From Clostridia bacterium (lineage in GTDB: Bacteria > Bacillota > Clostridia > Oscillospirales > Acutalibacteraceae), in assembly GCA_017416485.1 (NCBI GenBank), contig JAFQCH010000046.1, positions 1 to 32,000 of the forward strand: a stretch of 32,000 nucleotides of DNA. Reading direction: 5' to 3'. The notes under the pieces are model-generated. The model was given only the letters and a program-made list of their open reading frames with translations, had not been told where the DNA came from and made no database searches. The translations under genes were made by a program, and so were the position numbers. Shown here in pieces: positions 2,858 through 29,244 of this stretch. Numbering within the stretch: position 1 is the stretch's first letter; each line of letters opens with the position of its first letter.

Positions 2858-2876
2858 AAACAACACAAATCAATTT

Positions 2877-2905
2877 AAGGGAACGGCTCAAAAGTCGTTC
2901 CCTTT
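2877..2905 (+). terminator. Rho-independent terminator of the LRR/dockerin gene
   Basis: Hairpin aagggaacg / cgttccctt followed by T residues, 20 nt after the TAA stop. Confidence 0.7.
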
Positions 2906-3025
2906 GCCATTTCTCCAAGAGAACAAGCAAAATCATCAGCCAAAAGCAAGCCACCGTATCTTTCGACACGGTGGCTCACTTGTTTCGCGACAATCGAAGC
3001 CTGCGCTTCTTTTTGGGAATACTTA

Positions 3026-3613
3026 TTATTTTTCCAGCAGCTCAAGATACTTGTATATCGTTGTTCTGCTCATATCACACACTCTGGCAAACTCTGACAC
3101 GTTTAAGTTGCCGTTTTTGTATGAGGGGTAGTGTCTCATGAATATTGCCGGGATATTGTCTGCGGTTGTTTGCGGTCGCCCGATTTTCGCCCCCTTTGCT
3201 CTGGCATTTGCCATCCCAGACCGCACACGTTCTCTGATGATTCTCAACTCCAATTCTGCAAACACACCCGACAGCTGAATGAATGCATTTGTCATCGGGT
3301 CAATCTGACCTCCTGAACAGTCAACCGTTATGCTGCCGACAATCACCAGCCGCAAGCACTTTGCTTTTACTGTTTCTATGATTTCGCAGAGCTGCTTTGT
3401 GCTTCTGGCAAGTCTGGACACTTCGAGAGTGTATATGCTGTCTCCCGGTTGCGCTTGTTCCAGAAGCAGGGAGAGCTGCTCTTTGATTGCGGAATCGCCG
3501 TGTTCGTATTCAAGAAAAACTTCTTCGGCTCCGGCTGTTTTTAATTCACGGACTTGTCTCTCAATATCCTGCTTGCTCTCATTTGTCGAGCATCGGGCAT
3601 AACCGTAATTCAT
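3026..3613 (-). CDS. Small serine recombinase (resolvase/invertase family) with a C-terminal HTH
   Basis: The N-terminus MNYGYARCSTNESKQDIERQ matches the resolvase catalytic motif (Y-x-R-x-S-T..Q). The length is 195 aa. The C-terminal HTH is NVSEFARVCDMSRTTIYKYL. The RBS aaaggagaag lies upstream of ATG 3613. The stop is TAA. Confidence 0.85.
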   Translation of the reverse strand: MNYGYARCSTNESKQDIERQVRELKTAGAEEVFLEYEHGDSAIKEQLSLLLEQAQPGDSIYTLEVSRLARSTKQLCEIIETVKAKCLRLVIVGSITVDCSGGQIDPMTNAFIQLSGVFAELELRIIRERVRSGMANARAKGAKIGRPQTTADNIPAIFMRHYPSYKNGNLNVSEFARVCDMSRTTIYKYLELLEK

Positions 3614-3680
3614 GTTTTCTTCTCCTTTTGGTGGGTTTGCGGAGAGGGCAAGGGCTGTTTCCTTGCCCTCTCTGTTGGTT

Positions 3681-3956
3681 TTAAGCGATTGTGAAGCGAC
3701 GGCTGGCGATCTGCTTGGTGTATTCTTTGTAGAGTTCGGGCATCACCTTTTTGAAGCTCGTGGTGTCGAATCTCTGCGTGAGAACCGATGTCCAGCGGAC
3801 GATGTAAGTGCCGGCTTCCATTTCTTCGGTGTCTCTGCTGAGCATTTCAGCTTTGATTTCGTCTCTGAGTGCTTCGGCTTCAGCCTTTGCTTCTTCGATG
3901 AGGTTTTCAAGTTCCTTGAGAGCTTCGATTTTTGTTGTGATTTCGATTGTTGACAT
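3681..3956 (-). CDS. Hypothetical 91-aa protein with an N-terminal coiled coil
   Basis: The ORF has RBS aaaggaga 7 nt before ATG 3956. It is co-oriented with the recombinase and directly upstream of it. The N-terminus is heptad-rich (KIEALKELENLIEEAKAEAEALRDEIKAE). No family was recognised. Confidence 0.6.
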   Translation of the reverse strand: MSTIEITTKIEALKELENLIEEAKAEAEALRDEIKAEMLSRDTEEMEAGTYIVRWTSVLTQRFDTTSFKKVMPELYKEYTKQIASRRFTIA

Positions 3957-4004
3957 TGTTGTTATCTCCTTTGATTGTGTGTTTGTTGTTTACCAACTGT
4001 CTTT

Positions 4005-4033
4005 ATTATACTACGAAAATCGTAGTTTGTCAA
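4005..4033 (-). promoter_or_regulatory. Consensus sigma-A promoter with a palindromic operator in the spacer, driving the 91-aa/recombinase operon
   Basis: Minus strand: TTGACA (4033-4028), a 17-nt spacer, then TATAAT (4010-4005). The spacer contains the palindrome ctacgaaaatcgtag (4011-4025). Related TACG-N5-CGTA-like copies occur at about 4035-4047 and about 4053-4066. Confidence 0.7.
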
Positions 4034-4086
4034 TACGTTTTTCGTAAAAACTTTACGATTTTCGAAAAAAATTTTCGATTTCCGTA

Positions 4087-4115
4087 TTGATTTATTACGG
4101 AATGCGTGATACAAT
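4087..4115 (+). promoter_or_regulatory. Sigma-A promoter of the XRE-family gene, divergent from the recombinase operon promoter
   Basis: TTGATT (4087-4092), a 17-nt spacer, then TACAAT (4110-4115). The RBS aaggaaggtga precedes ATG 4142. Confidence 0.6.
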
Positions 4116-4141
4116 CATCCAAAAGGAAGGTGATATAAGTA

Positions 4142-4363
4142 ATGATAAAATTCAAAGTCAAAGTTATGCTTGCGTTGCGTGGGATGACACAAAAAGAATT
4201 AGCAGAAAAAACAGGCATCAGACCGCCGACTGTGTCCGCAATCTGCACAGGTGCGGTTAAGCATTTTCCGATTGATGCACTTGACAAGATTTGCACGGTT
4301 CTTGATTGTCAACCTGCGGACATTATGGAATACGTTCCTGACGATGCTAAGGGTGTTCAATAA
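4142..4363 (+). CDS. XRE/Cro-CI family helix-turn-helix transcriptional regulator (73 aa)
   Basis: MLALRGMTQKELAEKTGIRPPTVSAICTG is a typical HTH_3 motif. The protein is small, has a good RBS and ends in TAA. Confidence 0.85.
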   Translation: MIKFKVKVMLALRGMTQKELAEKTGIRPPTVSAICTGAVKHFPIDALDKICTVLDCQPADIMEYVPDDAKGVQ

Positions 4364-4632
4364 AACATTTGATATTCTGAACGGTTTTTTGGGGCTTCCA
4401 GAAGCACAAAATCTGACGAAAAATGCGGTGTTTTTGTTCAGGAAATGTGAATCATCTTTTTGCGGACACCGGGGGACGTATTCAGGGATGAAAAAAATAT
4501 TTTTCATTTTTTCTCCTTGGTGGTGGCTCTTGCTCTTTTGAAATGTTCGTTTCATTCAGACTGACGGTTTTTCCGACCGTGCACAGAAGATGAAATCTCT
4601 GTCCAACAGACGACAGAGAAGGAATACAAACG

Positions 4633-4689
4633 AAAAAAAACGGCGATTGCGGCTCGAATTTTATCGAAAGCCGCAACCGCCGTTTTTTT
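4633..4689. terminator. Bidirectional rho-independent terminator
   Basis: A long hairpin acggcgattgcggct...agccgcaaccgccgt (one mismatch) is flanked by an A-run on its 5' side and a T-run on its 3' side. Confidence 0.6.
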
Positions 4690-4818
4690 ATTTGAATGAT
4701 CCTAATATGTCATCCAATGCCTAATCAATCAGTGTTTTCATGCTTTTATGTATTATGTTGAATAACTCTGTTTCAAGAACAGACTTTTTCTTTTTTTTAT
4801 TTTTCTTGTTTTTCTGGC

Positions 4819-5001
4819 TCATTTTTTCTGCTCCTTTACAATGATGTGAATGCTGTCTTCTTCATCAACATCAAGAATATCTTCCGATATTTTTTTTCTT
4901 TGTTCAATCCAGTTTGTCTGCGCAGTTGCATTATTGATCTGATACCAGAATTTGTCAGGTAATGTGCCGTTATTTCTGGATTGTATTGTTGTTTTATCCA
5001 A
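4819..5001 (-). CDS. Hypothetical 60-aa protein with a TTG start
   Basis: A strong RBS AAGGAGG lies 7 nt upstream of TTG 5001. It is the last gene of the minus-strand operon. The stop is TGA. No family was recognised. Confidence 0.4.
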   Translation of the reverse strand: MDKTTIQSRNNGTLPDKFWYQINNATAQTNWIEQRKKISEDILDVDEEDSIHIIVKEQKK

Positions 5002-5089
5002 AGTAGAATCCTCCTTTTTCTTTCAGAATGTCATCAAGTGTTATTGTCAGAGCTGTTTTGTTTACATCGAATTTTCGCCAATTACTTTC

Positions 5090-5440
5090 CTATGGAATCT
5101 GATAATTCAAAGGAGGTTTGTGTTTTCTTATATAATAGCCTTCTCTTTCTCCGATTTCTTCATCAATTTCAGTTTGCTTTTTGGATTTGGCTCTGTAAAG
5201 CACATCAAATTTGATTTTCATATTTCTGCTTTTGGCTTCGGCAAGAACGGAATACTTATTATTTTCGGGCGTTGATGTGCTTACCCAGTGTTCTGCCATA
5301 CGATAGAGAATGTCTCTGCTTTTGCCTACATAAACAATGATATCATTGATGGATATTGAATATATCCCGGCGCACTAAAACTTTGTGCTCCATTTCTATG
5401 TTAAATACTTTCTATATAAGTTGTCAACGTATTTGCTCAT
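5090..5440 (-). CDS. GIY-YIG domain nuclease-like gene with two internal in-frame TAG codons. It is either recoded/suppressor-dependent or a pseudogene.
   Basis: ATG 5440 is preceded by AAGGAG (5448-5453, 7-nt spacing). The translation is MSKYVDNLYRKYLT*KWSTKF*CAGIYSISINDIIVYVGKSRDILYRMAEHW.... The GIY..YVGKS..R motifs lie downstream of TAGs at 5396-5398 and 5375-5377. There is no ATG/GTG/TTG between the second TAG and the motifs, and the ORF track only reports 5090..5299. The nominal stop is also TAG (5090-5092). If that TAG is read through, the frame continues 31 codons to TAA 4994-4996. Confidence 0.55.
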
Positions 5441-5451
5441 ATCTTTTCTCC

Positions 5452-6003
5452 TTAAAATACAAATCCATCTTGTGTTTCACAAAAATCTATTACCTTTTTT
5501 GTCTCTTGGATTTTTATAATATCAGAATTATCTTTTTTTATGTTTTCTATTATATTATTATGCGTATTTTCAATATCTCCCGATGGGGGATATTCAGAAT
5601 GCATAGGGGAATCTTCAATTTTCGAAGATGGGGTATCTTCAAGCTGCCCCTGCGCACTTTTGTAAATCGCATCATAATCAACAATAATTTCGCCGGCTCG
5701 CTCTTTTGTGCCGGGATTGTGAATTAACCAACCTTTTTCAACCAGAGCTTTACGCGCCTTTTTGTATGTTTCTTCTGACATACCGCATCTGTCCATTACT
5801 GTTTTTTCGGCGACAGCAAAACTGCCGTTGGTTGCATTTCCGGTGAAAAATAATATCAATTTGAGCTATGCTCCGCATTTTCCCGGAATGCCATTGAAAA
5901 TGATTGATTCCAGCTCATGTGTGCGGATTGCTTTTCCCCATTTTTCATTTCTGTTTTTTTCTCCATGTGATTTCAGCAAAGGTGCTTGATTAAAATCGGA
6001 CAT
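5452..6003 (-). CDS. Winged-helix/HTH protein (Rep/DnaD-like replication or regulatory protein) with one in-frame TAG
   Basis: ATG 6003 has RBS GGAGA 6 nt upstream. The translation is MSDFNQAPLLKSHGEKNRNEKWGKAIRTHELESIIFNGIPGKCGA*LKLILFFTGNATNGSFAVAEKTVMDRCGMSEETYKKARKALVEKGWLI.... The TAG at 5866-5868 is in frame and sits inside the wHTH-like segment. The stop TAA 5452-5454 lies 11 nt before the next gene's ATG. The ORF track reports only the part from TTG 5859. Confidence 0.55.
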
Positions 6004-6068
6004 ATCATGTCTCCATTCTATTATAAAATTCAGGATTATAATATTTATTATTTTTGTCCTGTAATTAT

Positions 6069-6097
6069 ATTATAACAAAAATTTTTATATAAATCAA
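6069..6097 (-). promoter_or_regulatory. Sigma-A promoter of the TAG-containing operon
   Basis: Minus strand: TTGATT (6097-6092), a 17-nt spacer ending in TGT, then TATAAT (6074-6069). Confidence 0.6.
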
Positions 6098-6118
6098 AGC
6101 AGATCGATGAGCGCAAAC

Positions 6119-6149
6119 GAAAAACCGATATTCTGGACGAATATCGGTT
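6119..6149 (-). terminator. Terminator after the 157-aa gene
   Basis: The hairpin aaccgatattc/gaatatcggtt (6123-6149) is followed on the minus strand by TTTTCGTTTG. Confidence 0.5.
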
Positions 6150-6184
6150 TGACTTGTGTTGGTATATTTCATTGTCTTTTCCTT

Positions 6185-6658
6185 TTATGCTGTTTCGAGC
6201 AGTTTTGCAGTGGTTTCTTCTTCTAATACAGAAGTTGCAGATATGACAACCGGCTGTATGTTGAGATAGAAAAGGGGATTCTTTCTGAAATCGGGGAACT
6301 GTTTCAAAAACCATTTACTGACAACTGCATACCGGCTGTGTTGCGGAAGTGAGCCGTTCTCTTTTAAAAACTTAAATTCAGCAAGATAGTTTTCGTGATT
6401 TGGCAATCCAACAATGAAGCCTTCCATGCGTTCATATGTCAGGTTCTTGAACTGATTGCAGTTGAACGTTTCGCCACTCTTGGTTGTGTATTTCTTGGGT
6501 GATCGGTGGGTCTTTTTTGCAATGGTCAGAGAAGGAAAGTCAGTGGTTAATTTCAATACAAGTTCATATTCTGCACTGTTAGGGTCGTTCATATTTTCAG
6601 CAAAGTCAGCGGTGATTGTGAGAGTTTTGCTAATAATGTCAAAATTATACTTTTCCAT
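6185..6658 (-). CDS. Hypothetical 157-aa protein, a paralogue of the upstream 159-aa protein
   Basis: The ORF has ATG 6658 and a TAA stop. It shares ...Y/F-x-x-ME-x-Y/F-I..L.N... and KWFL-x-x-F motifs with ORF 6717..7196. Confidence 0.6.
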   Translation of the reverse strand: MEKYNFDIISKTLTITADFAENMNDPNSAEYELVLKLTTDFPSLTIAKKTHRSPKKYTTKSGETFNCNQFKNLTYERMEGFIVGLPNHENYLAEFKFLKENGSLPQHSRYAVVSKWFLKQFPDFRKNPLFYLNIQPVVISATSVLEEETTAKLLETA

Positions 6659-6716
6659 TTCTTTTTCATCCTTTCAGAATTTCAGAGTAAATCATTTGAT
6701 GTTTTTTATCCGTTTC

Positions 6717-7196
6717 TTAAGATGCAGATTTCAGCACAGGCGGATTGGTGTCAGCATTCTTTTTAGCCTGGCTCATGAGATGCATTGAAATGCGTTCTTT
6801 CGCATCGTCCATGTTGAATCCGTTTTCCTCAGATCCAAACTTTTCAAGGAACCACTTTTTTGTAAACGGGAATTCTTTGATTTCAGCATTTACTGCTACC
6901 TTTCTGACTTCTTTATATTCACCATACACGATGTCAGCATTATCGAGAGTTTTGATGTAATCTTCCATAAACTTGAAATCAAGACCGCTATAAGTTCTCT
7001 TGGCTTGTTTACTCTTGATTTTCTGTTCTTTGACAACAAGTTCAAATGTGGGATGTGCTGACATTTTGCTTGTAAGTTCTTCATAAGCATCACCGAATCC
7101 CTTGTTTGCTTTGTTGAAACTTGCCTTGGTGCCTGAGATTGTTTTTGCGAAGAAGTCGAGGGTGAAGTAGTTCTTGTTGTTTGTTGTGTTTTTCAT
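6717..7196 (-). CDS. Hypothetical 159-aa protein, a paralogue of ORF 6185..6658
   Basis: ATG 7196 (MKNTTNNKNYF...) with an upstream aaaggaaa RBS is preferred over the track's TTG at 7226. The stop is TAA. No family was recognised. Confidence 0.6.
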   Translation of the reverse strand: MKNTTNNKNYFTLDFFAKTISGTKASFNKANKGFGDAYEELTSKMSAHPTFELVVKEQKIKSKQAKRTYSGLDFKFMEDYIKTLDNADIVYGEYKEVRKVAVNAEIKEFPFTKKWFLEKFGSEENGFNMDDAKERISMHLMSQAKKNADTNPPVLKSAS

Positions 7197-7371
7197 AAGT
7201 AATTTCCTTTCTGCGGTAGGTCGCAACCCATTATTTTTTTTCGAGGAGGTTCAGTGCTGTGTTCCTCTCTCGTTGTGTCTATAGTATACAAAACAACCTA
7301 TCCAATATCAGTGGATAGGTTTTGGATTTGATTGTAATTTTTTTAAGTTTTTTTGTGAACAGAAATGATTC

Positions 7372-7450
7372 AAAGATGATGATATTTGTGTAAAGATGAT
7401 TGATGATATCAAAAGATGATCTGAATTGAAAAAAGTTTCATAAAGATGTG
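7372..7450 (+). repeat. Iteron-like direct repeats AAAGATGAT with 20-bp phasing, adjacent to an AT-rich tract
   Basis: aaagatgat occurs at 7372, 7392 and 7412 (exactly 20 bp apart), with a variant aaagatgtg at 7442. GATGATAT motifs are embedded at 7378 and 7402. A T/A-rich stretch lies at 7331-7360. Confidence 0.6.
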
Positions 7451-7632
7451 TATAATAAAAGGTAAAGAACTTGTATCCTGAACAAACGATATGATAAAAT
7501 CATATCAGCAAGCAGGCAAGAGGTCTTGAAAAGTAAATAAAAAACAGCCTGCAAATACAGGCTGTCGGAAAAGAGCATAAATCCGGGCATTGTGGCAGAT
7601 GATTGCATCTTTAAGCCGTGGGGCACCACGGC

Positions 7633-7682
7633 TGTGCTTCACACGCAGGAGGTCTGCAGTTCGAGTCTGCACGTCCCCACCA
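7633..7682 (+). tRNA. Orphan tRNA 3' half: part of the anticodon arm, variable loop, T-arm, acceptor 3' strand and encoded CCA. It is a pseudo-tRNA or an att-site remnant.
   Basis: The T-arm is tgcag-ttcgagt-ctgca (7655-7671). The acceptor 3' strand is cgtcccc (7672-7678), followed by discriminator A and CCA (7680-7682). The variable loop is aggtc. The required 5' acceptor strand ggggacg and a canonical D-arm are absent upstream. Confidence 0.6.
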
Positions 7683-7687
7683 AAAAA

Positions 7688-7717
7688 ACAGACAAGCCCT
7701 TGCTTGTCTGTTTTTTT
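7688..7717 (+). terminator. Rho-independent terminator directly after the tRNA-like 3' end
   Basis: The hairpin acagacaagc-cctt-gcttgtctgt is followed by T7. Confidence 0.75.
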
Positions 7718-7719
7718 AT

Positions 7720-7933
7720 CCATTGCGAAAGCAATGGCATATCATCAACGATAGCGCAGCTATCGTTGTATCTCATCAGTCCGTCAGGACTGTATATCAC
7801 CACGCTTTAGCGTGTATCAAAAGAGCTTTCGCAATGATGATATGCAAAACGAAAGTTTTGATGATATGCAACTTCTGCGAAGTTGATGATATGCAATTCC
7901 TGCAGAATTGACGATATACAATGCTTACGCATT
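7720..7933 (+). repeat. Array of 8 copies of a 10-nt motif (4x GCATATCATC-like, then 4x GATGATATGC-like in the opposite orientation) alternating with 8 sequence-unrelated perfect hairpins
   Basis: The left-half (L) motif copies are at 7737 gcatatcatc, 7768 gtatctcatc, 7792 gtatatcacc and 7814 gtatcaaaag. The right-half (R) motif copies, in the opposite orientation, are at 7836, 7860 and 7885 (gatgatatgc) and 7910 (gacgatatac), with 24-25-bp spacing. The hairpins are ccattgc-gaaa-gcaatgg, aacgatagc-gca-gctatcgtt, cagtcc-gtca-ggactg, cacgc-ttta-gcgtg, aaaac-gaaa-gtttt, aacttc-tgc-gaagtt, aattc-ctgca-gaatt and aatgc-ttac-gcatt. Confidence 0.8.
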
Positions 7934-7944
7934 GATTTTTTTTG

Positions 7945-7972
7945 CAGAACCTAAAATGGTTCTGTTTTTTTT
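7945..7972 (+). terminator. Rho-independent terminator closing the repeat array
   Basis: The hairpin cagaacc-taaaat-ggttctg is followed by T8. Confidence 0.7.
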
Positions 7973-7995
7973 GATGAAGAATTTTTTCAATTTAC

Positions 7996-8024
7996 TTGAA
8001 GTTGCGGTTTCTGTGTGCTATAGT
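7996..8024 (+). promoter_or_regulatory. Sigma-A promoter of the second LRR gene
   Basis: TTGAAG (7996-8001), a 17-nt spacer, then TATAGT (8019-8024). Confidence 0.55.
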
Positions 8025-8026
8025 GT

Positions 8027-8212
8027 AATTACCACACTATAATCTAATATTGTTTTTTTCACAAGACAAAACCGTGTTTTTACCTTTTGGTAAAAGCACT
8101 AACTTTGTTATTTCGGTTTTCGTTTTGTGAGACAAGAAATTATAGTGTGGTAGCTAATCGAAGTTAGTGTTTTTCAGTGTGTGCACAACTTCGGTTTGCA
8201 CACACTTTTTTT
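8027..8212 (+). promoter_or_regulatory. Structured ~190-nt 5' leader: a long nested imperfect hairpin followed by an intrinsic terminator with a possible antiterminator
   Basis: The nested pairings are accacactataat (8031-8043) with attatagtgtggt (8140-8152), cacaagacaaaaccg with cggttttcgttttgtg, and gtgtttttacc-tttt-ggtaaaagcac. The terminator agtgtgtgca...tgcacacact plus T6 spans 8176-8212, just before RBS ggagga. The segment cgaagtt (8159-8165) is complementary to aacttcg in the terminator loop. Confidence 0.55.
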
Positions 8213-8230
8213 ATTTTGGAGGACAAAACT

Positions 8231-10339
8231 ATGAAAAAACGAAGCTGCAAAATCTTGTCTGTCATTTTATGTTTGTTGTTATGCCTGTCGGTTGTGTCGC
8301 TGTCGGAAAGTGCTGTCGTAAAGGCAGAGATTATTTATCCTGATCATTATATTCCTTACCATAGCGAATATGGTACTATTTATTATGTAGTTGAGAACAA
8401 CGAGGCTTGCATCGTTGCTTGTAATGAACATGTAACCGACCTTGTTATTCCGTCGGAAATAGACGGTTATCCTGTAACAGGGATTGCTGAATATGCATTC
8501 ATGAATAACTCTATTAAAACTGTTATTATTCCGGATAGTATTACTTATATAGGAGCTGGAGCATTCTATGACTGTAACCTTGAAAGTTTAAATATCCCCG
8601 ATAGTGTTGCTTTCATAGGTGAAGGCGCATTTGCCGATTGTAAAAACCTTGCAAGTGTAAACATTCCGGCTTCAATAGAGACTATCGCAGGAGGATTATT
8701 TGGTGGCTGTGATAATCTTAAAACTGTAAACATCTCTGAAGGTATTCTTTCAATAGAAATGGGTGTTTTTGAAGGATGCAAAAGTCTTACAAGTATTACA
8801 CTGCCGGAATCGTTGCAATATATTGGTGAGGGTGCATTTTGTCTTACAGGCTTAACCTGTCTGGAAATTCCTGCAAATGTAACTTATGTCGGTAACATGT
8901 TTATGGATGTATTTCTAGAAGAATTTATTGTTTCAGAGGAAAACGAGTATTATTGTACTGATGAAAACGGAGTACTGTTTAATAAAGACAAAACAATGTT
9001 GATTGCATGTCCCGGAAGTTTGGATGTTACCTCATATACAATACCGGATGGGGTTATAACAATTGCACCCTATGCTTTTGCTTGCAATTTCAGATTGAAA
9101 GAAATTACAGTTTCTGAAGGTGTAAAAGAAATTGGTGAATGTGCTTTTGCGAATATGGTTTTTCTTGAAAAAATCAATCTTGCATCTACTGTTGAGCGTA
9201 TAGACTTCTGGGCATTTTATTATGACGTTGCGCTCAAAGAGATTGTAATTCCCGAATCAGTCAAATATGTTAATGAATCTTTTGCGCCGCTTTTATCGCT
9301 TGAGAAAGCAGTCATATACAGCAGAGATCTTGATTTGACCGGCAGTTATTTTGGTTGCACTTTAAACCCCGGGAACACGGCAGAGGAGAAAGCAGCTTTT
9401 TGTGCTGCATACCAAAAAAGAATCGTAGCTCAATATACATTCGACGATGAAAAATGGCAGGAAGCGGACAAAGAACTGGAATTATTGAACGAAAAATTCG
9501 GAGATAGAGAAGACCCCTTTGCCTATACCTGCCCCATTTATTGTTATCAGAACTCTTCCGCAGAAGCCTATGCAAAAGAAAACAATATAGAATACAGATA
9601 TATCCGCTGTGAAATTCATACAGAGGAGCTTGTTCCCGGAACTGCTGCCACCTGCACGCAAACAGGTCTGACGGAAGGTAAAAAATGCTCTGTATGCAGT
9701 CTGGTTCTTCTTGAACAGACCGAAATTCCCGTTGAAGACCACGAAATGCAGTCTTGGGTGAATGACTACGACGCAGGCACGGCAACAAGAAACTGCAAAA
9801 ACTGTGCATATACGGAAACGGTTGCACTTGATGTGCAGGATAACAACGATGTTGAGATCATCGCCCCCGAAAATCCCGACCTTGATTTTGACATTGCCGG
9901 CATAGATAAAAACAGTGACTCCTTTGTGCTTGTGCAGAATACTGTCAAAGAAAACACGGAAGATAAATATGAGGTTCTTAAAATGTTTGACATCACACTC
10001 AAAAACAAAGACGGTGTGCATGTGCAACCCGACGGAACCGTAAAAGTCAAACTTCCGCTTGATTTTGCAAGTGAGGGCAATTATAAGGTCTATCGTGTGA
10101 ATGATGACGGAAGTCTTACCGATATGCAAGCTGTCAGAGAAGGAAGCCACATGGTTTTTGAAACGGATCACTTCAGCATTTATGTGATTGTCGGTGATGA
10201 TGTTGCCGTCCAAGAACCGCCTGTTGAAGAAAAACCGCCGCAGGACAGTGAAGAAAACATCTTTGAAACTTTTGCAAATTTCATTCTTACGCTTTTGAAA
10301 TGGATTGCAAGACTTATTGGTATTTTTGAGAAACTATAA
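8231..10339 (+). CDS. Secreted BspA-type leucine-rich-repeat surface protein with a Cys-rich module and a C-terminal amphipathic hydrophobic tail
   Basis: ATG 8231 with RBS GGAGGA and the signal peptide MKKRSCKILSVILCLLLCLSVVSLSESAVVKA is preferred over the track's GTG 8177, which lies inside the leader terminator. LRR units of the form AFxxCxxLxxIxIP are present. CTQTGLTEGKKCSVCS is a Cys module like that in the first LRR protein. The tail is IFETFANFILTLLKWIARLIGIFEKL. The stop is TAA. Confidence 0.85.
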   Translation: MKKRSCKILSVILCLLLCLSVVSLSESAVVKAEIIYPDHYIPYHSEYGTIYYVVENNEACIVACNEHVTDLVIPSEIDGYPVTGIAEYAFMNNSIKTVIIPDSITYIGAGAFYDCNLESLNIPDSVAFIGEGAFADCKNLASVNIPASIETIAGGLFGGCDNLKTVNISEGILSIEMGVFEGCKSLTSITLPESLQYIGEGAFCLTGLTCLEIPANVTYVGNMFMDVFLEEFIVSEENEYYCTDENGVLFNKDKTMLIACPGSLDVTSYTIPDGVITIAPYAFACNFRLKEITVSEGVKEIGECAFANMVFLEKINLASTVERIDFWAFYYDVALKEIVIPESVKYVNESFAPLLSLEKAVIYSRDLDLTGSYFGCTLNPGNTAEEKAAFCAAYQKRIVAQYTFDDEKWQEADKELELLNEKFGDREDPFAYTCPIYCYQNSSAEAYAKENNIEYRYIRCEIHTEELVPGTAATCTQTGLTEGKKCSVCSLVLLEQTEIPVEDHEMQSWVNDYDAGTATRNCKNCAYTETVALDVQDNNDVEIIAPENPDLDFDIAGIDKNSDSFVLVQNTVKENTEDKYEVLKMFDITLKNKDGVHVQPDGTVKVKLPLDFASEGNYKVYRVNDDGSLTDMQAVREGSHMVFETDHFSIYVIVGDDVAVQEPPVEEKPPQDSEENIFETFANFILTLLKWIARLIGIFEKL

Positions 10340-18325: not shown

Positions 18326-20017
18326 TCAGTTTAGCTTTTGTGTCAGGCTGACAAAGTCAATTTTGTCCATGCGTGTTCTCGGCATTGCGTCCAATACACA
18401 AATTTCGCGCGGTACAGAAAAACGATTGAGATGTTCTTCGCAGCTTTCAATAATAATCTTTTTGTATTCTTCGAGTTTTGCAATGTCTGCACCTTCTGCG
18501 AGTGTGATATACAGGCGGACAATGGGTCTGCCTTTTTCGTCATAGCCCTGCACGGCACAATTTTCATGCACAAAGGGAAGTGTTTCAATCAGATTTTCAA
18601 TATCGGCCGGGAACACATTGTAGCCCGAAATGATAATCAGTCTTTTCTTTCTTGCAATGAATGTCAGAAAACGGTCTTTGTCCATCTTTGCAAGGTCTCC
18701 TGTCAGCACCCACTTGGTGCCGTTTTCATCGGTGTAAATGCCTTCGCCAAACTTACCGTCTTCGGTCAGATATCCCTTCATTACGCAGTCACCGGTGATA
18801 GCAACTTCACCTACAGTGTCGAACGGTACTTCCTTTTTGTCTTCATCAAGAATTACGATGCGGGAGGTTTCAAAGTCAGTGCCGACCGTACCGGGCTTTG
18901 TGTTCCAGAGAATGTTCGAGCAGTCGCAGGCGCTGCATTCGGTCAGACCGTAGCCGGGCATCAGAATAGCGGTTGAGCCATTATCCTGCATAAATGTGTT
19001 AAAACGGTTCATGAATTCAAACGGAACATTATCACCGCCGATGTAAGCGTATTTAATGTGCTGCAGATGTTTACCCGGGAAGTTGGGGTGGTCAAGCAGC
19101 TTGCGATACATATTCGGCACACCGACAAGGTCATAGCAGGGATTCTTTTTGAGAATATCAATATAATCATCTGCATTGAAGCTCATCATCAGAATGCACT
19201 TGTTGCCTGCAAAAATAGCACACATCATCGTGCAGCACAGACCGAAACAATGGAAAAAGGGAAGCGCTGCAATGTTGGATTTGCTGCCGGGGGCATCATC
19301 GGTGGGAATCATGAGCGAGAATTTGTTGTTGATTGCGGCATTGATATTGGTGGAAGACAGCATAATTGTCTTACTCTGACCGGTTGTGCCGCCACCATTC
19401 ATGTAGAATCCGACAAGGTCACCGCTGCGGGAAACACCTTGTGTGGTTTTTCCCTGACATGCAGCAAGAATATCGCCGTAAAATGTAAACTCGCAAACAC
19501 CATCGGTTGCAGCAATTTGCTCTGCGTTGGGTTTAATTGACAGTTTTTTGCTGTTTTCAACAGCATACTGAGCAGGGGTGGAAACAATCACATGCACATT
19601 CATTTCGCTGAGCGTTTTTGCATGCTTTACGAACAGAAAATCAGGCAACAGAATGCCCTTGGATTTAGTGAATTTCATAGCCGAGCGCATTGCATCGGTC
19701 GGAAACATCGGGTGCAGCAGGCTTGTAATGCAACCGATTTTATTGAGTGCAAAAAGAATCACTACTTCCTCAATGGTGTTGGGAGTGAAAAGTGTGAATA
19801 CATCACCTATATTGAATTTCAGTTCTTCTTTGAAATAATAAGCCAGGCTGTCAATATCAGCAAGAATTTCCGAACGCATGTGGTCGGTACCCATGAATTG
19901 CAACAGCGGATAGTCTTCTTTTATATGCTCTGTGCAAGCAAGAAAATACTCATAGCAATTCAAATCTGCATAATGAGGAAGAATGTCTTTCATTGTAAAT
20001 TGCGGTTTGGCTATCAT
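18326..20017 (-). CDS. Adenylate-forming (ANL superfamily) acyl-CoA synthetase/AMP-acid ligase, paralogue 1
   Basis: The protein is 563 aa. Motifs are GGGTTGQSKT (A3/P-loop variant), GYGLTE (A5), TGDLAKMD (A7), ARKKRLIIISGYNVFPADIE (A8) and PRTRMDKIDF (A10 Lys). The stop is TGA. Confidence 0.85.
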   Translation of the reverse strand: MIAKPQFTMKDILPHYADLNCYEYFLACTEHIKEDYPLLQFMGTDHMRSEILADIDSLAYYFKEELKFNIGDVFTLFTPNTIEEVVILFALNKIGCITSLLHPMFPTDAMRSAMKFTKSKGILLPDFLFVKHAKTLSEMNVHVIVSTPAQYAVENSKKLSIKPNAEQIAATDGVCEFTFYGDILAACQGKTTQGVSRSGDLVGFYMNGGGTTGQSKTIMLSSTNINAAINNKFSLMIPTDDAPGSKSNIAALPFFHCFGLCCTMMCAIFAGNKCILMMSFNADDYIDILKKNPCYDLVGVPNMYRKLLDHPNFPGKHLQHIKYAYIGGDNVPFEFMNRFNTFMQDNGSTAILMPGYGLTECSACDCSNILWNTKPGTVGTDFETSRIVILDEDKKEVPFDTVGEVAITGDCVMKGYLTEDGKFGEGIYTDENGTKWVLTGDLAKMDKDRFLTFIARKKRLIIISGYNVFPADIENLIETLPFVHENCAVQGYDEKGRPIVRLYITLAEGADIAKLEEYKKIIIESCEEHLNRFSVPREICVLDAMPRTRMDKIDFVSLTQKLN

Positions 20018-20051
20018 GATTTCCTCCGAGACTTGATTTTATGTGCTTATA

Positions 20052-20081
20052 ATTATAGCCTAAAATAGATTAAAATGTCAA
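20052..20081 (-). promoter_or_regulatory. Sigma-A promoter of ligase paralogue 1
   Basis: Minus strand: TTGACA (20081-20076), an 18-nt spacer, then TATAAT (20057-20052). A hairpin terminator of paralogue 2 lies at about 20135-20169. Confidence 0.55.
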
Positions 20082-20178
20082 TAAATGATTAAAAAAATTT
20101 AAGTATGTATATATTTAAATTCTGTTATTTCTCAAAGAAAGACATCGGCAGGCTGCAGATGTCTTTCTTGTTATATTA

Positions 20179-21870
20179 TCAGTCAAGTGTTTCTGTAAGG
20201 CTTACAAAGTCAATTTTTTCCATGCGGGTTCTCGGCATGGCATCCAGCACACGGATATCTCGCGGAACAGAGTAGGAATTGAGTGATTCTGCACACATAT
20301 CGGTGATGATTTTTTTGTATTCATCGAGCTTTGCAATGTCACCATTTTCAGACAAGGTTATATACAGACGGACAATCGGCTTTTGGTTATCGTCATATCC
20401 TTGTACTGCACAGCATTCATGGATAAACGGCAGGGGTTCAAGCAGATTTTCGATGTCTGCGGGGAATACGTTGAAGCCTGCAATGATGATAAGGCGTTTC
20501 TTTCTTGCAATGAATGTGATGAAGCCTTCTTCATCCATACTTGCAAGGTCACCTGTCATGATCCATCTTTTGCCGTCTTTGTCAATGTAAACACCTTCGT
20601 TTTCTCTGCCGTCTGGCATCAGATACCCCTGCATAACAACTTCACCGGTCATGCCGAGTTCACCGACTGTGCCGCGGGGAACAACATTATAGTCATCATC
20701 AAAGATTTCAATGTGTGAATAAACAAGATCCGTGCCGACCGTGCCGGGCTTGTATGCCCAAAGGGAGTTGGTGGTGTCGCATGCGCTGCATTCTGTCAGA
20801 CCGTAGCCTGCCATCAGCAGAGCGATCGAGCCGTTTTCAGCCATAATGGTGTTGAATCTGTTGAGGAAATCAAACGGAACATTGTCACCGCCGATATAGG
20901 CATAGCGGACATGTTTGAGATGTTCTCCGTAAAATTCGGGTGTATCAAGCAGTTTGCGGAACATATTCGGCACACCGACAATTTCAAAAATCTTGTTGTT
21001 TTTGAGAAGTTTGATATATTCATCAGCATCAAACTTGGGCATCAGAATGCTCTTTTGTCCCGAGAACAGAGAGCTGAGCAAAACGGCACAAAGACCAAAC
21101 GCATGGAAGAAAGGCAATGCAGAAATATTTGCATAAGTTCCTGCAGGGCAATCAAATGCAATGAATGCGTCTGTTGCATCATTGATTGCCGCGTTGATAT
21201 TTCTTGAAGACAGACGGATGGTTCTGCTGACCCCCGTTGTGCCGCCGCCGTTCATGTAAAGGGCGGTGGCATTGCCGTTGCGACGGATGCAGTCAACGGT
21301 TTTACCTTGATTTCTTGCAAGAATATCGCCGAAGAATTCATACTTGAAGCCTTCGCCGCATGCAGACAATGCCTGTTCATTCGGGCGGATCGCAAATTTC
21401 TTTTCTGCGGGAACTGCATAAACTGCAGGTGCACATACCACAACTTTAACACCCATTTCCTGCAATGCTTTTGCATGCAGGGGGGCCATTGCGTCCAGAA
21501 TCAGAATACCTTTGGACTTTGTGTATTCCACGGAAGAACGCATGGCTTCGGTCGGAATCAAAGGATGCACCAGCGCGGCAATACATCCTATTTTGTTGAG
21601 CGCAAACAGCATCACAACTTCTTCAATTGTGTTGGGTGTGAACAGGGTGAAAGCATCCCCGGGTTTCAATCCGAGTTCTTCTTTGAAATAGTAAGCAAGG
21701 CTGTCCACATCGGCAAGGAACTCGGAGCGCATGATATCTTTTCCCATGAATTGCAACATGGCATAGTCTTCCTTGTGGTGCCATGTGCTTGCAAGGAAGT
21801 ATTCATAAATGCTCATGTTGTCGAATGCAGGCAACAAGTCATGCACGGTAAATTGCGGTTTTTTGATCAT
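20179..21870 (-). CDS. Adenylate-forming (ANL) acyl-CoA synthetase/AMP-acid ligase, paralogue 2
   Basis: The protein is 563 aa and colinear with paralogues 1 and 3, at roughly two-thirds identity by eye. Motifs are GGGTTGVSRT, GYGLTE, TGDLASMD, ARKKRLIIIAGFNVFPADIE and PRTRMEKIDF. The stop is TGA. Confidence 0.85.
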   Translation of the reverse strand: MIKKPQFTVHDLLPAFDNMSIYEYFLASTWHHKEDYAMLQFMGKDIMRSEFLADVDSLAYYFKEELGLKPGDAFTLFTPNTIEEVVMLFALNKIGCIAALVHPLIPTEAMRSSVEYTKSKGILILDAMAPLHAKALQEMGVKVVVCAPAVYAVPAEKKFAIRPNEQALSACGEGFKYEFFGDILARNQGKTVDCIRRNGNATALYMNGGGTTGVSRTIRLSSRNINAAINDATDAFIAFDCPAGTYANISALPFFHAFGLCAVLLSSLFSGQKSILMPKFDADEYIKLLKNNKIFEIVGVPNMFRKLLDTPEFYGEHLKHVRYAYIGGDNVPFDFLNRFNTIMAENGSIALLMAGYGLTECSACDTTNSLWAYKPGTVGTDLVYSHIEIFDDDYNVVPRGTVGELGMTGEVVMQGYLMPDGRENEGVYIDKDGKRWIMTGDLASMDEEGFITFIARKKRLIIIAGFNVFPADIENLLEPLPFIHECCAVQGYDDNQKPIVRLYITLSENGDIAKLDEYKKIITDMCAESLNSYSVPRDIRVLDAMPRTRMEKIDFVSLTETLD

Positions 21871-21915
21871 TCTGTTTTCTCCTTAATTATTTTCTCGTTC
21901 CATAAAATTCAATTT

Positions 21916-21944
21916 ATTATATTGCAAAAAAGAAATATTGTCAA
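21916..21944 (-). promoter_or_regulatory. Sigma-A promoter of ligase paralogue 2
   Basis: Minus strand: TTGACA (21944-21939), a 17-nt spacer, then TATAAT (21921-21916). The terminator of paralogue 3 lies at about 21975-22009. Confidence 0.6.
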
Positions 21945-22020
21945 CAAAAAACAACAATATTCGATATTTTTTAGAAAAAATTTGCGGGAAAGTTTTTACT
22001 CTCCCGCAACGATGTGTCTG

Positions 22021-29114: not shown

Positions 29115-29127
29115 AAATAATCCTCCT

Positions 29128-29240
29128 GAAAAAACAAAAAAACGTCCGGGCGCAGAAAAATAATCCTGCCCAGGCGTTCGGCATTTCACAAGTTATCCGT
29201 TCCCTCGCAGTGCTCTGCGTTACGCCGGTAGCGGATACAA
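29128..29240 (-). promoter_or_regulatory. ZTP riboswitch (pfl RNA motif) with a terminator expression platform in the pflB leader
   Basis: All elements are on the minus strand. P1 pairs UAUCCG (29237-29232) with CGGAUA (29199-29194). It encloses CUACCGGCG-UAAC-[GCAG-AGCA-CUGC]-GAGGGAA. After a short linker comes the signature GCCGAACGCCUGGGCA (CGCCUGGGCA at 29176-29167). That segment can alternatively pair with CUGCGCCCGGACG (29155-29143), which is followed by U7, forming the terminator. The location upstream of pfl is the classic context for this motif. Confidence 0.75.
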
Positions 29241-29244
29241 TGTA

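Follow-up and report, generated by a model that had tools for sequence, protein, structure and literature searches.

The repeat block at 7720-7937 of the window, the whole 32,000-nucleotide stretch of DNA analysed here, is a member of a large family in gut Clostridia whose arrays alternate hairpins and linkers. Comparison among loci indicates that the module carrying the array is an insertion cassette. The fullest versions of this cassette add an outward promoter and a single gene of the PF05635 family, and the window copy is an "orphan" array of four plus four units without such a gene. As the best explanation, though one to which we give slightly less than an even chance, we suggest that its linkers are putative recognition sites for PF05635 proteins, displayed by the hairpins between them.

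The array in the window

Direct reading and a repeat finder resolve 7720-7937 into four hairpin-and-linker units, a centre block and four linker-and-hairpin units in mirror orientation. The features of the block and its flanks are the following.

7617..7683, plus strand: 3' two-thirds of a tRNA-Val(CAC) with CCA end; the repeat-cassette module starts directly after the CCA
7682..7717, no single strand: bidirectional intrinsic terminator, A7, stem CAGACAAGC-CCTT-GCTTGTCTG, T7, with perfect 16-nt arms
7720..7737, plus strand: hairpin 1, CCATTGC-GAAA-GCAATGG, with the invariant TTTATCC just before it
7737-7746, 7768-7777 and 7792-7801, plus strand: left-half linkers in reverse orientation, GCATATCATC, GTATCTCATC and GTATATCACC (sequence and family alignment)
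7737..7814, plus strand: left-half hairpins at 7746-7768 (10-bp stem, loop gca), 7777-7792 and 7801-7814 (sequence)
7814..7836, plus strand: centre, with the truncated linker GTAT, a spacer and the block GCTTTCGCAATG at 7825-7836 (repeat finder)
7836..7934, plus strand: right-half linkers, GATGATATGC exact at 7836, 7860 and 7885, GACGATATAC at 7910, spacing 24/25/25 nt
7845-7860, 7869-7885, 7894-7910 and 7919-7934, plus strand: right-half hairpins, all perfect (sequence)
7932..7937, plus strand: terminal truncated linker TTGATT, the conserved array end; a terminator, not a promoter, comes next in the window copy
7944..7973, plus strand: intrinsic terminator, GCAGAACC-TAAAAT-GGTTCTG plus T8 (stem-loop 7944-7965, then the T run)

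All four exact 10-mers of the 32-kb window lie inside 7737-7894, against an arithmetical chance expectation of about 0.06 matches per 64 kb on both strands. The centre block GCTTTCGCAATG is the exact reverse complement of 7721-7732, which comprises the 5' arm and loop of hairpin 1. Two of the hairpins carry a GAAA loop. The block folds with z = -6.4 against shuffles on either strand, and the minimum-free-energy folds mix local and long-range pairs in a way that does not separate the models.

An earlier sequence-only reading had placed four motif copies on each side of the centre, with a hairpin in every interval. The right set of four holds, as do the left copies at 7737, 7768 and 7792. The supposed fourth left copy at 7814, GTATCAAAAG, matches at only 4 of 10 positions and is the conserved truncated linker GTAT with its spacer. 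Hairpins do fill the flanking intervals, but the centre (7814-7836) is no hairpin and holds the complement of the 5' arm and loop of hairpin 1. The block was also said to be bracketed by two plus-strand terminators. The downstream one is confirmed and is common to the orthologous tRNA-Val(CAC) loci L066, L077 and L100. The upstream one is bidirectional and belongs to the module as its first conserved part, the same A-run, hairpin and T-run being found after the tRNA CCA in related loci. Copies of gatgatat at 7378 and 7402 and a palindrome at 7488-7506 had been counted as outlying members; they belong to a different repeat, AAAGATGAT in three copies at 20-nt spacing, and the palindrome's second arm shows no conservation in the orthologue L100.

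The tRNA-Val(CAC) piece before the array has the hairpin GCCGTGG-GGCA-CCACGGC in place of the D arm and received no ARAGORN call. It shares 52 identical nucleotides with the 3' part of the intact tRNA-Val(CAC) of L100, where the orthologous pseudo-tRNA (4270-4347) is called by ARAGORN. By its sequence the piece is a displaced or remnant tRNA, the 5' part having been displaced by the neighbouring island. Searches of Rfam returned no relevant match at the gathering score, and those for 7000-8300 at E<=10 were chance matches far below threshold. The sole Rfam family reaching threshold in the window is a ZTP riboswitch located elsewhere. A blastn search of 7300-8000 matched no plasmids or phages, and an exact-pattern scan of viral contigs was equally negative.

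A large family with a canonical order

A search of related genomes for the motif-and-hairpin grammar, proposed along with the sequence-only reading, was carried out as an exact-pattern scan and matched more than 120 loci, which are spread over numerous MAGs of Clostridia from the Acutalibacteraceae, Oscillospiraceae and Christensenellaceae. The canonical order begins with the tRNA CCA end, the bidirectional terminator, TTTATCC, hairpin 1 and three GYATATCATC units. It continues with a centre complementary to the 5' arm and loop of hairpin 1, three GATGATATRC units and TTGATT. The canonical member is dyad-symmetric and measures about 175-200 bp from TTTATCC to the terminal GAT, with a unit period of 23-25 bp. 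The arrangement "---+++" accounts for 64 of 156 clusters, and "+++---" was not seen among arrays with the GATGATATGC linker. Arrays contain from 2 to 19 units, with near-identical neighbours in L090, and units drawn from a shared stem repertoire occur in different orders among loci. Different linkers are found together in one genome or even in one array (L100, L061, L071). The arrays are intergenic and multi-copy, and are often located at contig breaks. Other positions include those following a stop codon or a terminator and those preceding a ribosome-binding site, and some arrays are far from tRNAs.

Constraint on pairing

What is retained among the copies is the ability to form hairpins rather than the sequence of the stems, as had been proposed from the window alone. 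Among the 278 distinct spacers, 193 are perfect palindromes, and 90% of positions are Watson-Crick paired versus 29% after shuffling. Compensatory changes, a suggested check, were frequent, with 14 of 26 stem pairs (helices 1-6) changed on both sides. Hairpin 1 has kept 7/7 stem pairs across 60 loci, three of them with changes on both sides. The family includes 76 different stems, and conservation resides in the linker, not in the palindrome. The stems of one copy are indeed unrelated to each other, but across loci they are position-specific and drawn from a shared repertoire. Constant stems can carry freely varying loops, and the loops show a one-strand bias towards GNA/GNNA.

The pairing between hairpin 1 and the centre is also maintained, at 93.8% versus 76.9% in shuffled controls, and in five pairs both partners have changed. 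Across loci this block exists in at least six covarying versions, and in L100, L138 and L140 new sequences preserve the complementarity. An inversion between the two sites was not observed, with 0 inverted among about 75 assembled copies. A metagenome scan for the predicted inversion junction, with uncertain taxon coverage and without a positive control, returned five unrelated coding sequences, which are chance matches. On the CATATCATC strand, each half tolerates G.T more than A.C, with counts of 9:2 and 11:4. The overall count is 19:9 (p = 0.09), or 20:6 by halves, which makes the strand assignment merely suggestive.

Selected pairing of the left with the right linkers into one long helix had also been proposed. 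Their complementarity equals the shuffled control (95.2% versus 95.1%), and uncompensated A/C changes are common, so this proposal is rejected.

tRNA linkage and insertion

Arrays are closely tied to tRNA genes. A tRNA end lies at most 110 nt away in 56 of 88 convergent copies, always on the hairpin-1 side in the 44 unambiguous cases, and at least 15 tRNA species serve as neighbours. Two loci are especially informative about insertion. In L072, the tRNA-Ser 3' end is repeated over 19 bp on both sides of a 635-bp cassette (terminator, array, promoter and PF05635 gene), with a different terminator beyond it. In L064, a 345-bp unit lies between two copies of a 44-nt tRNA-Arg 3' segment, followed by a different terminator and no array. 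The module is thus an inserted cassette, since direct repeats of the tRNA 3' end bound the unit and a different terminator follows, presumably the original terminator of the tRNA. Direct repeats of tRNA 3' segments at both ends were found, within the flanks examined, in 5 of 63 tRNA-linked copies (L018, L028, L064, L072, L081), three of which are tandem copies (L018, L028, L081). Elements 97.8% identical also occur after different tRNAs in different species. Clustering of the open reading frames within 8 kb of 120 loci revealed no recurrent transposase, integrase, RAYT or other recombinase, which is a point against the explanation favoured here.

The outward promoter and the PF05635 gene

In about one third of copies TTGATT, the end of the array, is the -35 box of an outward promoter. 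A -10 element follows at 16-18 nt in 22 of 65 parsed copies versus 12% in controls, mostly as TGnTATAAT at 17 nt. In the main family this promoter lies between the array and a PF05635 gene, and other cargo is also found downstream of the same promoter. PF05635/TIGR02436 is the only recurrent neighbour gene (20 of 120 loci, about 17%). It encodes a 115-aa four-helix-bundle protein of the 23S rRNA IVS protein family (PF05635, E = 1.5e-17; TIGR02436, E = 1.8e-20), near-neutral with a pI of 7.6, with 2RLD as the nearest solved structure and no defence-system match in PADLOC. Among non-orthologous loci, similarity extends from 240-305 nt before the ATG to the stop codon.

Eleven PF05635 homologues were picked by protein similarity alone, and an array lies directly upstream of nine, with L127 and L137 as the two without. 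The linker changes with the protein subclade:

81-100% identity: linker GATGATATRC
60-65% identity: linker GATTACATAC
49-54% identity: linker ATGATAT
41-48% identity: linker TGAAATA/TATTTCA
44% identity, two separate homologues: linker AGCTAAATT or GTAGAAATC

The notion that the 10-mer is a recognition site is plausible and gains strength from this change of linker with protein subclade. Subclades differ in how the promoter-proximal units are oriented relative to the gene, and in the L134 subclade the two halves come in the opposite order.

A model for the cassette and its alternatives

We suggest that the conserved linker might be the recognition site of a PF05635 oligomer. In single-stranded DNA or RNA, folding of the variable hairpins could display the linkers and set their phasing. 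Since the final truncated linker serves as the -35 box, the protein-linker complex might control the promoter of its cassette, and it might take part in a step placing or duplicating cassettes at tRNA 3' ends. Flanking host genes would be kept working by the terminator and promoter that the cassette brings. Taken jointly, linker recognition, hairpin display, promoter control and a role in cassette placement form a tentative model, which we consider somewhat more likely to fail in some part than to hold in full. Several observations speak against PF05635 as the linker-binding protein. The protein is near-neutral, unlike the basic Avd protein of diversity-generating retroelements (DGRs), its gene adjoins only about 17% of arrays, and two homologues lack an array. 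Unit orientation relative to the gene varies by subclade, up to the reversed halves in L134, and different linkers coexist in one genome or array. Co-variation of motif and protein could also reflect simple co-descent in host lineages. Selection on the hairpins also has a competitor in template-switch correction of quasi-palindromes, which could keep palindromes perfect instead. A broader form of the proposal is doubtful. PF05635 proteins would be sequence-specific binders of linkers between extruded hairpins, arrays and proteins together would make up a new class of integrase-less cassettes homing to the 3' ends of stable RNAs, and the rRNA IVS would be another manifestation of the system.

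The strongest alternative, which we still rate as unlikely, is that the family consists of selfish repeats that are non-autonomous, like REP/BIME elements or MITEs. Such repeats would spread and expand via single-stranded DNA hairpins through an enzyme encoded elsewhere, with PF05635 as a passenger on the outward promoter and hairpins kept perfect by the needs of transposition or by quasi-palindrome correction. The multi-copy, intergenic and often contig-breaking arrays agree with this, as do the range of 2 to 19 units with near-identical neighbours (L090), the shuffled order of units from a shared repertoire, and positions that follow stop codons or terminators or precede ribosome-binding sites. 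Other cargo behind the same promoter would fit a passenger role, and the one-strand GNA/GNNA loop bias would fit stable DNA mini-hairpins. However, across the 120 loci no gene for a Y1/HUH, DDE or integrase enzyme is recurrent, and the pattern of stem conservation is unlike that of REP palindromes. The distant PF05635 genes with an array of subclade-specific linkers directly upstream would also be left unexplained.

The array might instead act at the RNA level as a polar, bidirectional transcription insulator that backs up the tRNA terminator and blocks antisense entry, a reading with a low probability. The half transcribed first would present good hairpins and G-poor CAUAUCAUCA linkers, which could load a termination or processing factor, for example at a split Rho-utilisation site. 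The convergent orientation in the GATGATATGC family suits this function, as do the tolerance of G.U and the GNRA-like loops on the strand read first from each side. The module also lies between a terminator and a promoter, a plus-strand terminator directly follows the window copy, and unidirectional arrays are mostly oriented so that sense transcription reads the other strand (17:9, 12:5). BIMEs are reported to attenuate transcription. Yet the gap between the T run and hairpin 1 is too short for a promoter, and a look by eye, which was not systematic, noticed no leftward promoter in the right flanks; the array would therefore be transcribed by read-through only. Related subclades (L133, L134, L138, L139, L144) have the opposite half order or orientation before the gene, the G.T versus A.C bias is modest (19:9, p = 0.09), and the element is without Rfam match.

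Arrays could also be leftover arm-type sites (attL/attR arms) of tRNA-targeting tyrosine-integrase islands, as integrase-less CIME-like remnants. They abut tRNA 3' ends, 19-44-nt direct repeats of the tRNA 3' end occur, and the L100 island has its own variant array beside an intact tRNA. The two sets of 10-mers in opposite orientation recall lambda attP arms, which also carry two site sets in opposite orientation. Repeats of a tRNA 3' segment at both ends, as in tRNA islands and CIMEs, were found in the 5 of 63 tRNA-linked copies, but no integrase was found in 120 loci, and many different tRNAs (at least 15 species, not one fixed target) are used with variable crossover lengths. Both site sets lie on one side of the core, arm sites need no palindromic spacers, and arrays also occur far from tRNAs, which makes this origin very unlikely. 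A last option is a centromere, a replication origin or abutted transposon ends that belong to the neighbouring island (2.9-7.6 kb), with its XRE, wHTH or resolvase proteins as binders. The nearness of the island and the regular spacing of the motifs stand in its favour, but it is hardly credible, since more than 120 loci have this module after a tRNA gene and lack those island genes, the intact tRNA-Val(CAC) loci L066 and L077 have the same array and no island, and plasmids and phages gave no match.

Relevance for annotation and function

PF05635/TIGR02436 is a very large family whose function is still called uncharacterised in the papers found, three decades after IVS ORFs were first reported. 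A linker motif that tracks the protein subclade suggests a testable role for this family. If the broader form of the proposal is true, arrays and proteins would constitute a protein-plus-repeat system with co-evolving specificity and a modularity like that of Cas6 and CRISPR repeats or ToxN and ToxI. In uncultured Clostridia of gut and rumen the arrays are abundant, interrupt assemblies and lie at tRNA genes, and recognizing them improves the annotation of MAGs, tRNA loci and island boundaries. The compact combination of bidirectional terminator, structured spacer and outward promoter would be a natural insulator part for engineering these bacteria. If the cassette truly inserts at tRNA 3' ends without its own recombinase, it would point to a new mobility route.

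Comparison with known systems

The array is neither a CRISPR nor an attC array, as was recognized from the window alone. Its repeat has 10 nt rather than 23-47 nt, its spacers of 9-21 nt are palindromic rather than unique and non-palindromic, its halves are inverted, and no cas-like gene recurs. A fragment of a known IS or MITE terminus had been raised as another explanation. The left end consists of the A-run and terminator, the right end is TTGATT or the end of the gene, and the element has no terminal inverted repeats and no short fixed target-site duplication, with flanking repeats of variable length (19-44 nt). Systems such as parC-ParR of plasmid R1 and iterons with Rep share sites of about 10 bp that are repeated in two sets, either flanking or preceding a small gene's promoter, and a motif specific to the protein variant. 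Their sites are helix-phased without palindromic spacers, one array per replicon, and their proteins are RHH or winged-helix, whereas the arrays here have a 23-25 bp period, dozens of chromosomal copies and a four-helix-bundle protein, without rep or par genes.

Type III toxin-antitoxin systems (ToxIN, CptIN, TenpIN) also have short structured tandem repeats directly upstream of a small gene, with the repeat specific to the protein subfamily. There, promoter, repeats, terminator and toxin make up a single transcription unit, with an endoribonuclease as the toxin. In the main family of the present arrays the promoter lies between array and gene, most arrays stand alone, and PF05635 has neither a known nuclease motif nor a PADLOC match. 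BOX elements of Streptococcus pneumoniae (boxA-boxB(n)-boxC) are similarly modular and intergenic, with variable internal units and strong predicted secondary structure. Their modules are sequence-conserved, and we know of no BOX elements with a grammar of conserved linkers and variable hairpins, tRNA targeting or an associated protein gene. The DGR protein Avd belongs to the same four-helix-bundle family as PF05635 and is basic. DGR target recognition reportedly depends on a hairpin or cruciform in the DNA, where the pairing of the stem and a strand-specific GRNA loop are important, and the loops here are GNA/GNNA on one strand. In contrast to DGRs, the surroundings of the arrays showed no reverse transcriptase and no template/variable repeat pair, the protein is not basic, and there are many hairpins instead of one.

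The closest relatives in kind are REP/BIME elements and the intervening sequences of 23S rRNA. REP/BIME elements of enterobacteria and pseudomonads are likewise dispersed, multi-copy and intergenic, often right after genes or terminators, with palindromic units alternating or in tandem, short linkers, variable copy number and a possible action on transcription or mRNA ends. The claim that the block does not resemble REP elements is therefore correct for membership only, as the arrays work like this class. REP palindromes are conserved, at 20-40 nt with imperfect pairing and a GTAG-type motif, and their partner is RAYT. Here, the linker is conserved while the 76 different stems vary and covary, with PF05635 as the partner gene and the tRNA 3' end as the canonical site, and no RAYT recurs within 8 kb of 120 loci. 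Literature searches for tRNA-linked hairpin arrays or for PF05635 function returned nothing specific. The 23S rRNA IVS is also a small cassette with a PF05635 protein as its sole ORF, lodged in or at a stable-RNA gene. S23p IVSs are regarded as selfish and the function of their protein as undetermined (PMC4990558; bioRxiv 10.1101/2024.02.27.582315), and the Coxiella IVS carries variable-number tandem heptamers just upstream of its ORF (PMC4990558). IVSs reside inside rRNA helices, are bounded by a long inverted-repeat stem and are removed by RNase III, whereas the cassette here follows a tRNA CCA and terminator, has direct repeats of the tRNA 3' end as its boundaries, and brings a terminator, a promoter and hairpin-and-linker arrays. 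The family turned up in neither Rfam nor the searched literature, and we rate it as a new form of two known kinds, REP/BIME-like arrays and IVS-like cassettes.

Layout of the array and its surroundings

The array lies behind a tRNA-Val(CAC) remnant and is laid out as follows, linkers being the conserved motifs of about 10 nt that alternate with hairpins:

7682-7717: perfect A7-stem-T7 hairpin, beginning directly after the CCA of the tRNA-like 3' end and preceding the module
7720-7937, first part: hairpin 1, CCATTGC-GAAA-GCAATGG
7720-7937, left linkers: GCATATCATC, GTATCTCATC and GTATATCACC, in reverse orientation, a perfect hairpin after each
7720-7937, centre: truncated linker GTAT and spacer, then the block GCTTTCGCAATG
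7720-7937, right linkers: GATGATATGC three times and GACGATATAC, forward, a perfect hairpin after each
7720-7937, end: terminal TTGATT
7944-7973, + strand: terminator downstream of the module

The sequence-only reading had described a 10-nt motif array bracketed by terminators. Both points hold, with exact 10-mers found four times in the whole window, all within the array, a folding z of -6.4 against shuffles on both strands, and the outer elements at 7682-7717 and 7944-7973. The proposed alternation of motifs and hairpins is correct between the linkers, where perfect hairpins can be read directly, and fails at the centre, which has none. Reverse-complemented, the centre block equals the 5' arm and loop of hairpin 1 exactly. 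The hairpin feet (CA...TG) are conserved, hence the real unit is a hairpin plus an 8-10-nt linker.

In related genomes (loci L066 and L077), an intact tRNA-Val(CAC) is followed by the same terminator, array and second terminator. The 5' part of the tRNA is replaced in both the window and the related locus L100, where an intact tRNA-Val lies 2 kb off and precedes a variant array and then a cargo gene. The tRNA fragment is thus a 3' part that was displaced when the tRNA gene took an insertion. The array is a resident chromosomal module outside the resolvase/XRE/HTH island, as related genomes carry it after the intact tRNA. The island (2860-7600) lies between two BspA-type LRR surface-protein genes and holds, together with several ORFs without a Pfam match:

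3026-3613, - strand: serine resolvase/invertase, 195 aa
4142-4363, + strand: XRE-type ORF
5452-5859, - strand: HTH_36 protein

The tRNA-Val(CAC) derivative (window 7617-7683; L100 4270-4347) has a GC-rich hairpin instead of the D arm, is kept in two genomes and has a promoter-like site of its own upstream. A tRNA-like or tRNA-half RNA could be made from it. The region at 7372-7456, with about 83% conservation in L100, contains three copies of AAAGATGAT at exact 20-nt spacing (7372, 7392, 7412) and, just downstream, promoter-like TTGAAA (7426-7431) and TATAAT (7451-7456). The predicted transcript from this site would cross the tRNA-Val remnant up to the terminator at 7717. Beyond the array, a perfect 14-nt inverted repeat TACCACACTATAAT (8030-8043 / 8139-8152) encloses a leader segment of about 95 nt belonging to a BspA-like LRR gene (8177-10339). 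In L100 (5739-6025) this leader stands ahead of another gene, of 320 aa, so that it travels as a promoter/leader module. Elsewhere in the window, a ZMP/ZTP riboswitch (RF01750, 50.8 bits; 29161-29242, - strand) lies upstream of a long minus-strand ORF (26886-29189), and three tandem minus-strand ORFs of about 563 aa (18326-20017, 20179-21870 and 22021-23709; span 18326-23709) look like paralogues.

A dispersed repeat family behind tRNA genes

The array belongs to a dispersed family of structured repeats with a defined dyad architecture, tied to tRNA 3' ends. The search of related genomes suggested by the sequence-only reading was productive: an exact pattern of two linkers 9-13 nt apart, scanned in one genome per species, matched at least 120 loci from dozens of Clostridia MAGs. 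Among the matches listed, hosts are mainly Acutalibacteraceae, Oscillospiraceae and Christensenellaceae of ruminant and human gut, with several loci per genome and frequent placement at contig ends. The comparative data are MAG contigs and short metagenome contigs throughout. Searches of viral contigs, plasmids and phages gave no match to the array, and Rfam returned no family of this kind. The commonest layout, in 64 of 156 motif clusters, has three linkers in reverse and then three in forward orientation. The opposite order (forward then reverse) was not seen in clusters carrying this linker, and arrays of 3 to 19 units that all point one way occur too. The alignment of 60 copies yields a canonical anatomy:

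Part 1: tRNA CCA end
Part 2: A run, terminator hairpin and T run
Part 3: TTTATCC, invariant
Part 4: hairpin 1
Part 5: GYATATCATC plus hairpin, three times
Part 6: GTAT and spacer
Part 7: centre block
Part 8: GATGATATRC plus hairpin, three times
Part 9: TTGAT(T)

A tRNA called by ARAGORN ends at most 110 nt away and is directed into the element in 56 of 88 convergent copies, with at least 15 tRNA species represented next to such copies. In every unambiguous copy (44/44), the tRNA flanks the hairpin 1 end.

The module behaves as an insertion cassette. L072 is a 635-bp insertion, starting with the tRNA-Ser(GGA) 3' end ATCTCTCCTTCTCCGCCA, followed by terminator, array, promoter, PF05635 gene and a small GAA-loop hairpin; at its end the same 19 nt are repeated before a different terminator without array. 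At L064, the unit measures about 345 bp and contains a 44-nt tRNA-Arg(CCT) 3' segment, terminator and array; the second 44-nt copy is next to a different terminator, again without array. Tandem copies with tRNA 3' fragments between them are found at L018, L028 and L081. L111 and L112, which belong to different species, carry elements of 97.8% identity behind different tRNAs. At L028 (about 4550-4690, - strand) and L064 (5440-5530), the cassette's right end carries its outward promoter, which faces directly into the displaced tRNA 3' fragment and the terminator of that fragment; such loci may consequently express 3' tRNA fragments.

Variant arrays add to this diversity. The array behind the intact tRNA-Val of L100 (6040-6240, - strand) uses AACGATAT as its linker, appearing as ATATCGTT in the left half, and has a hairpin 1 of its own (TTGTGTCC-GCA-GGACACAA) with a centre to match, which means that two linker classes coexist in one genome. 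The linker variants GCGATAT, TCGATAT and ATGTAAT are found in L002, L006, L016 and L071. L090 carries two oppositely oriented arrays, of 9 units and 18 units (1670-1869 and 2012-2412), with about 140 bp between them. Its 18 units are near-identical and include AATGC/GCATT to AACGC/GCGTT double changes, with both single-change intermediates present, and the locus looks like a recent tandem expansion.

Constraint on hairpins and linkers

The ability to form hairpins is conserved, as had been proposed: both sides have changed in 14 of 26 aligned stem pairs, and aligned hairpins are paired at 96.3% versus 80.5% when shuffled. Perfect palindromes make up 193 of the 278 distinct spacers, whose positions are 90% Watson-Crick (29% shuffled). 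Stems come in 76 different versions, of which about a dozen are common, and the loop is free to vary on any given stem. Complementarity between hairpin 1 (5' arm and loop) and the centre reaches 93.8% versus 76.9% shuffled, with five pairs changed on both sides and at least six co-varying versions, among them loops GAAA/TTTC, GACA/TGTC, GCAG/CTGC and GATA/TATC. Base-pairing of left with right linkers, also suggested earlier, has to be abandoned as a selected feature, since pairing equals that of shuffled sequences (95.2% versus 95.1%) and A-to-C changes, which are frequent in left linkers, go uncompensated. Their complementarity follows solely from the conservation of each. Loops read GNA/GNNA on the CATATCATC strand, and a lone mismatch in an otherwise perfect stem is more often G.T on that strand (9:2 and 11:4 by half; 19:9 over all arrays, p = 0.09). 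These biases hint that one single strand might matter.

Association with PF05635 genes

The family is linked physically and evolutionarily to one clade of PF05635 genes. When ORFs from 120 loci were clustered (90 aa or longer), a single recurrent family came out (20/120 loci, among the matches listed). Its protein, about 115 aa long, matches both PF05635 (23S rRNA intervening-sequence protein) and TIGR02436 (four helix bundle protein), and 2RLD is the nearest solved structure. The gene is always directly downstream of the array, behind a predicted outward promoter, which it would use. A -10 box follows the terminal TTGATT by 16-18 nt in 22 of 65 parsed copies (control rate 12%), mostly at 17 nt as TGnTATAAT. 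Nucleotide similarity between non-orthologous loci extends from 240-305 nt before the ATG, at the array/terminator, to the stop codon. PF05635 is functionally uncharacterised in the literature searched (PMC4990558; bioRxiv 10.1101/2024.02.27.582315), and that literature makes no mention of such arrays.

When PF05635 relatives were picked by protein sequence alone and their genomic contexts then read (n=11), a hairpin-and-linker array was directly upstream in nine. The exceptions are L127, with a DUF559 gene in the array's place, and L137, with a tRNA and terminator and no array. The linker changes in step with the protein subclade:

Table. Linkers by protein identity to the PF05635 query.
81-100%: GATGATATRC (L126 and main family)
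60-65%: GATTACATAC (L136, L140)
49-54%: ATGATAT / ATATCAT (L133, L134)
41-48%: TGAAATA / TATTTCA (L138, L139)
44%: AGCTAAATT (L141)
44%: GTAGAAATC (L144)

Complementarity of hairpin 1 and centre recurs in entirely different sequences in L138, L140 and the AACGATAT variant of L100. In some subclades the halves are ordered or oriented the other way round with respect to the gene, and the arrays of L139 and L144 stop just before the ribosome-binding site. Shared descent could account for the co-variation of linker and protein. The L127 gene (1049-1450) encodes 133 aa with a Vsr-like endonuclease domain (DUF559) and is bracketed by CCTCCCTC...GAGGGAGG hairpins; this unit may be another small insertion. 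At L138 (1-100), the 3' end in front of the cassette, GGACGAGGGTTCGACTCCCTCCGCCTCCACCA, resembles tmRNA and not tRNA, and the contig begins inside it.

Possible functions and known systems

We tentatively suggest, as the most likely reading, that the linker is the recognition site of a PF05635 oligomer and that the hairpins fold out, displaying the linkers. The oligomer would bind the linkers so displayed, and the complex might control the cassette promoter and join in cassette placement or duplication. No integrase or transposase is recurrent nearby among the ORFs of the 120 loci (among the matches listed). A selfish repeat of REP/MITE-like type that is mobilised in trans and carries PF05635 as cargo is possible but rather unlikely. 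An RNA-level bidirectional insulator or processing signal is more doubtful still. Remnant integrase arm sites are improbable, and the centromere, origin or transposon ends of the island proposed from the sequence alone can be set aside almost entirely.

The array lacks the defining features of CRISPR, of MITEs, of iterons or par sites, and of type III toxin-antitoxin systems. The closest in working are REP/BIME arrays, as dispersed palindromic repeats, and rRNA intervening sequences, as small PF05635-only cassettes in a stable-RNA gene, although the family departs in defining features from both.
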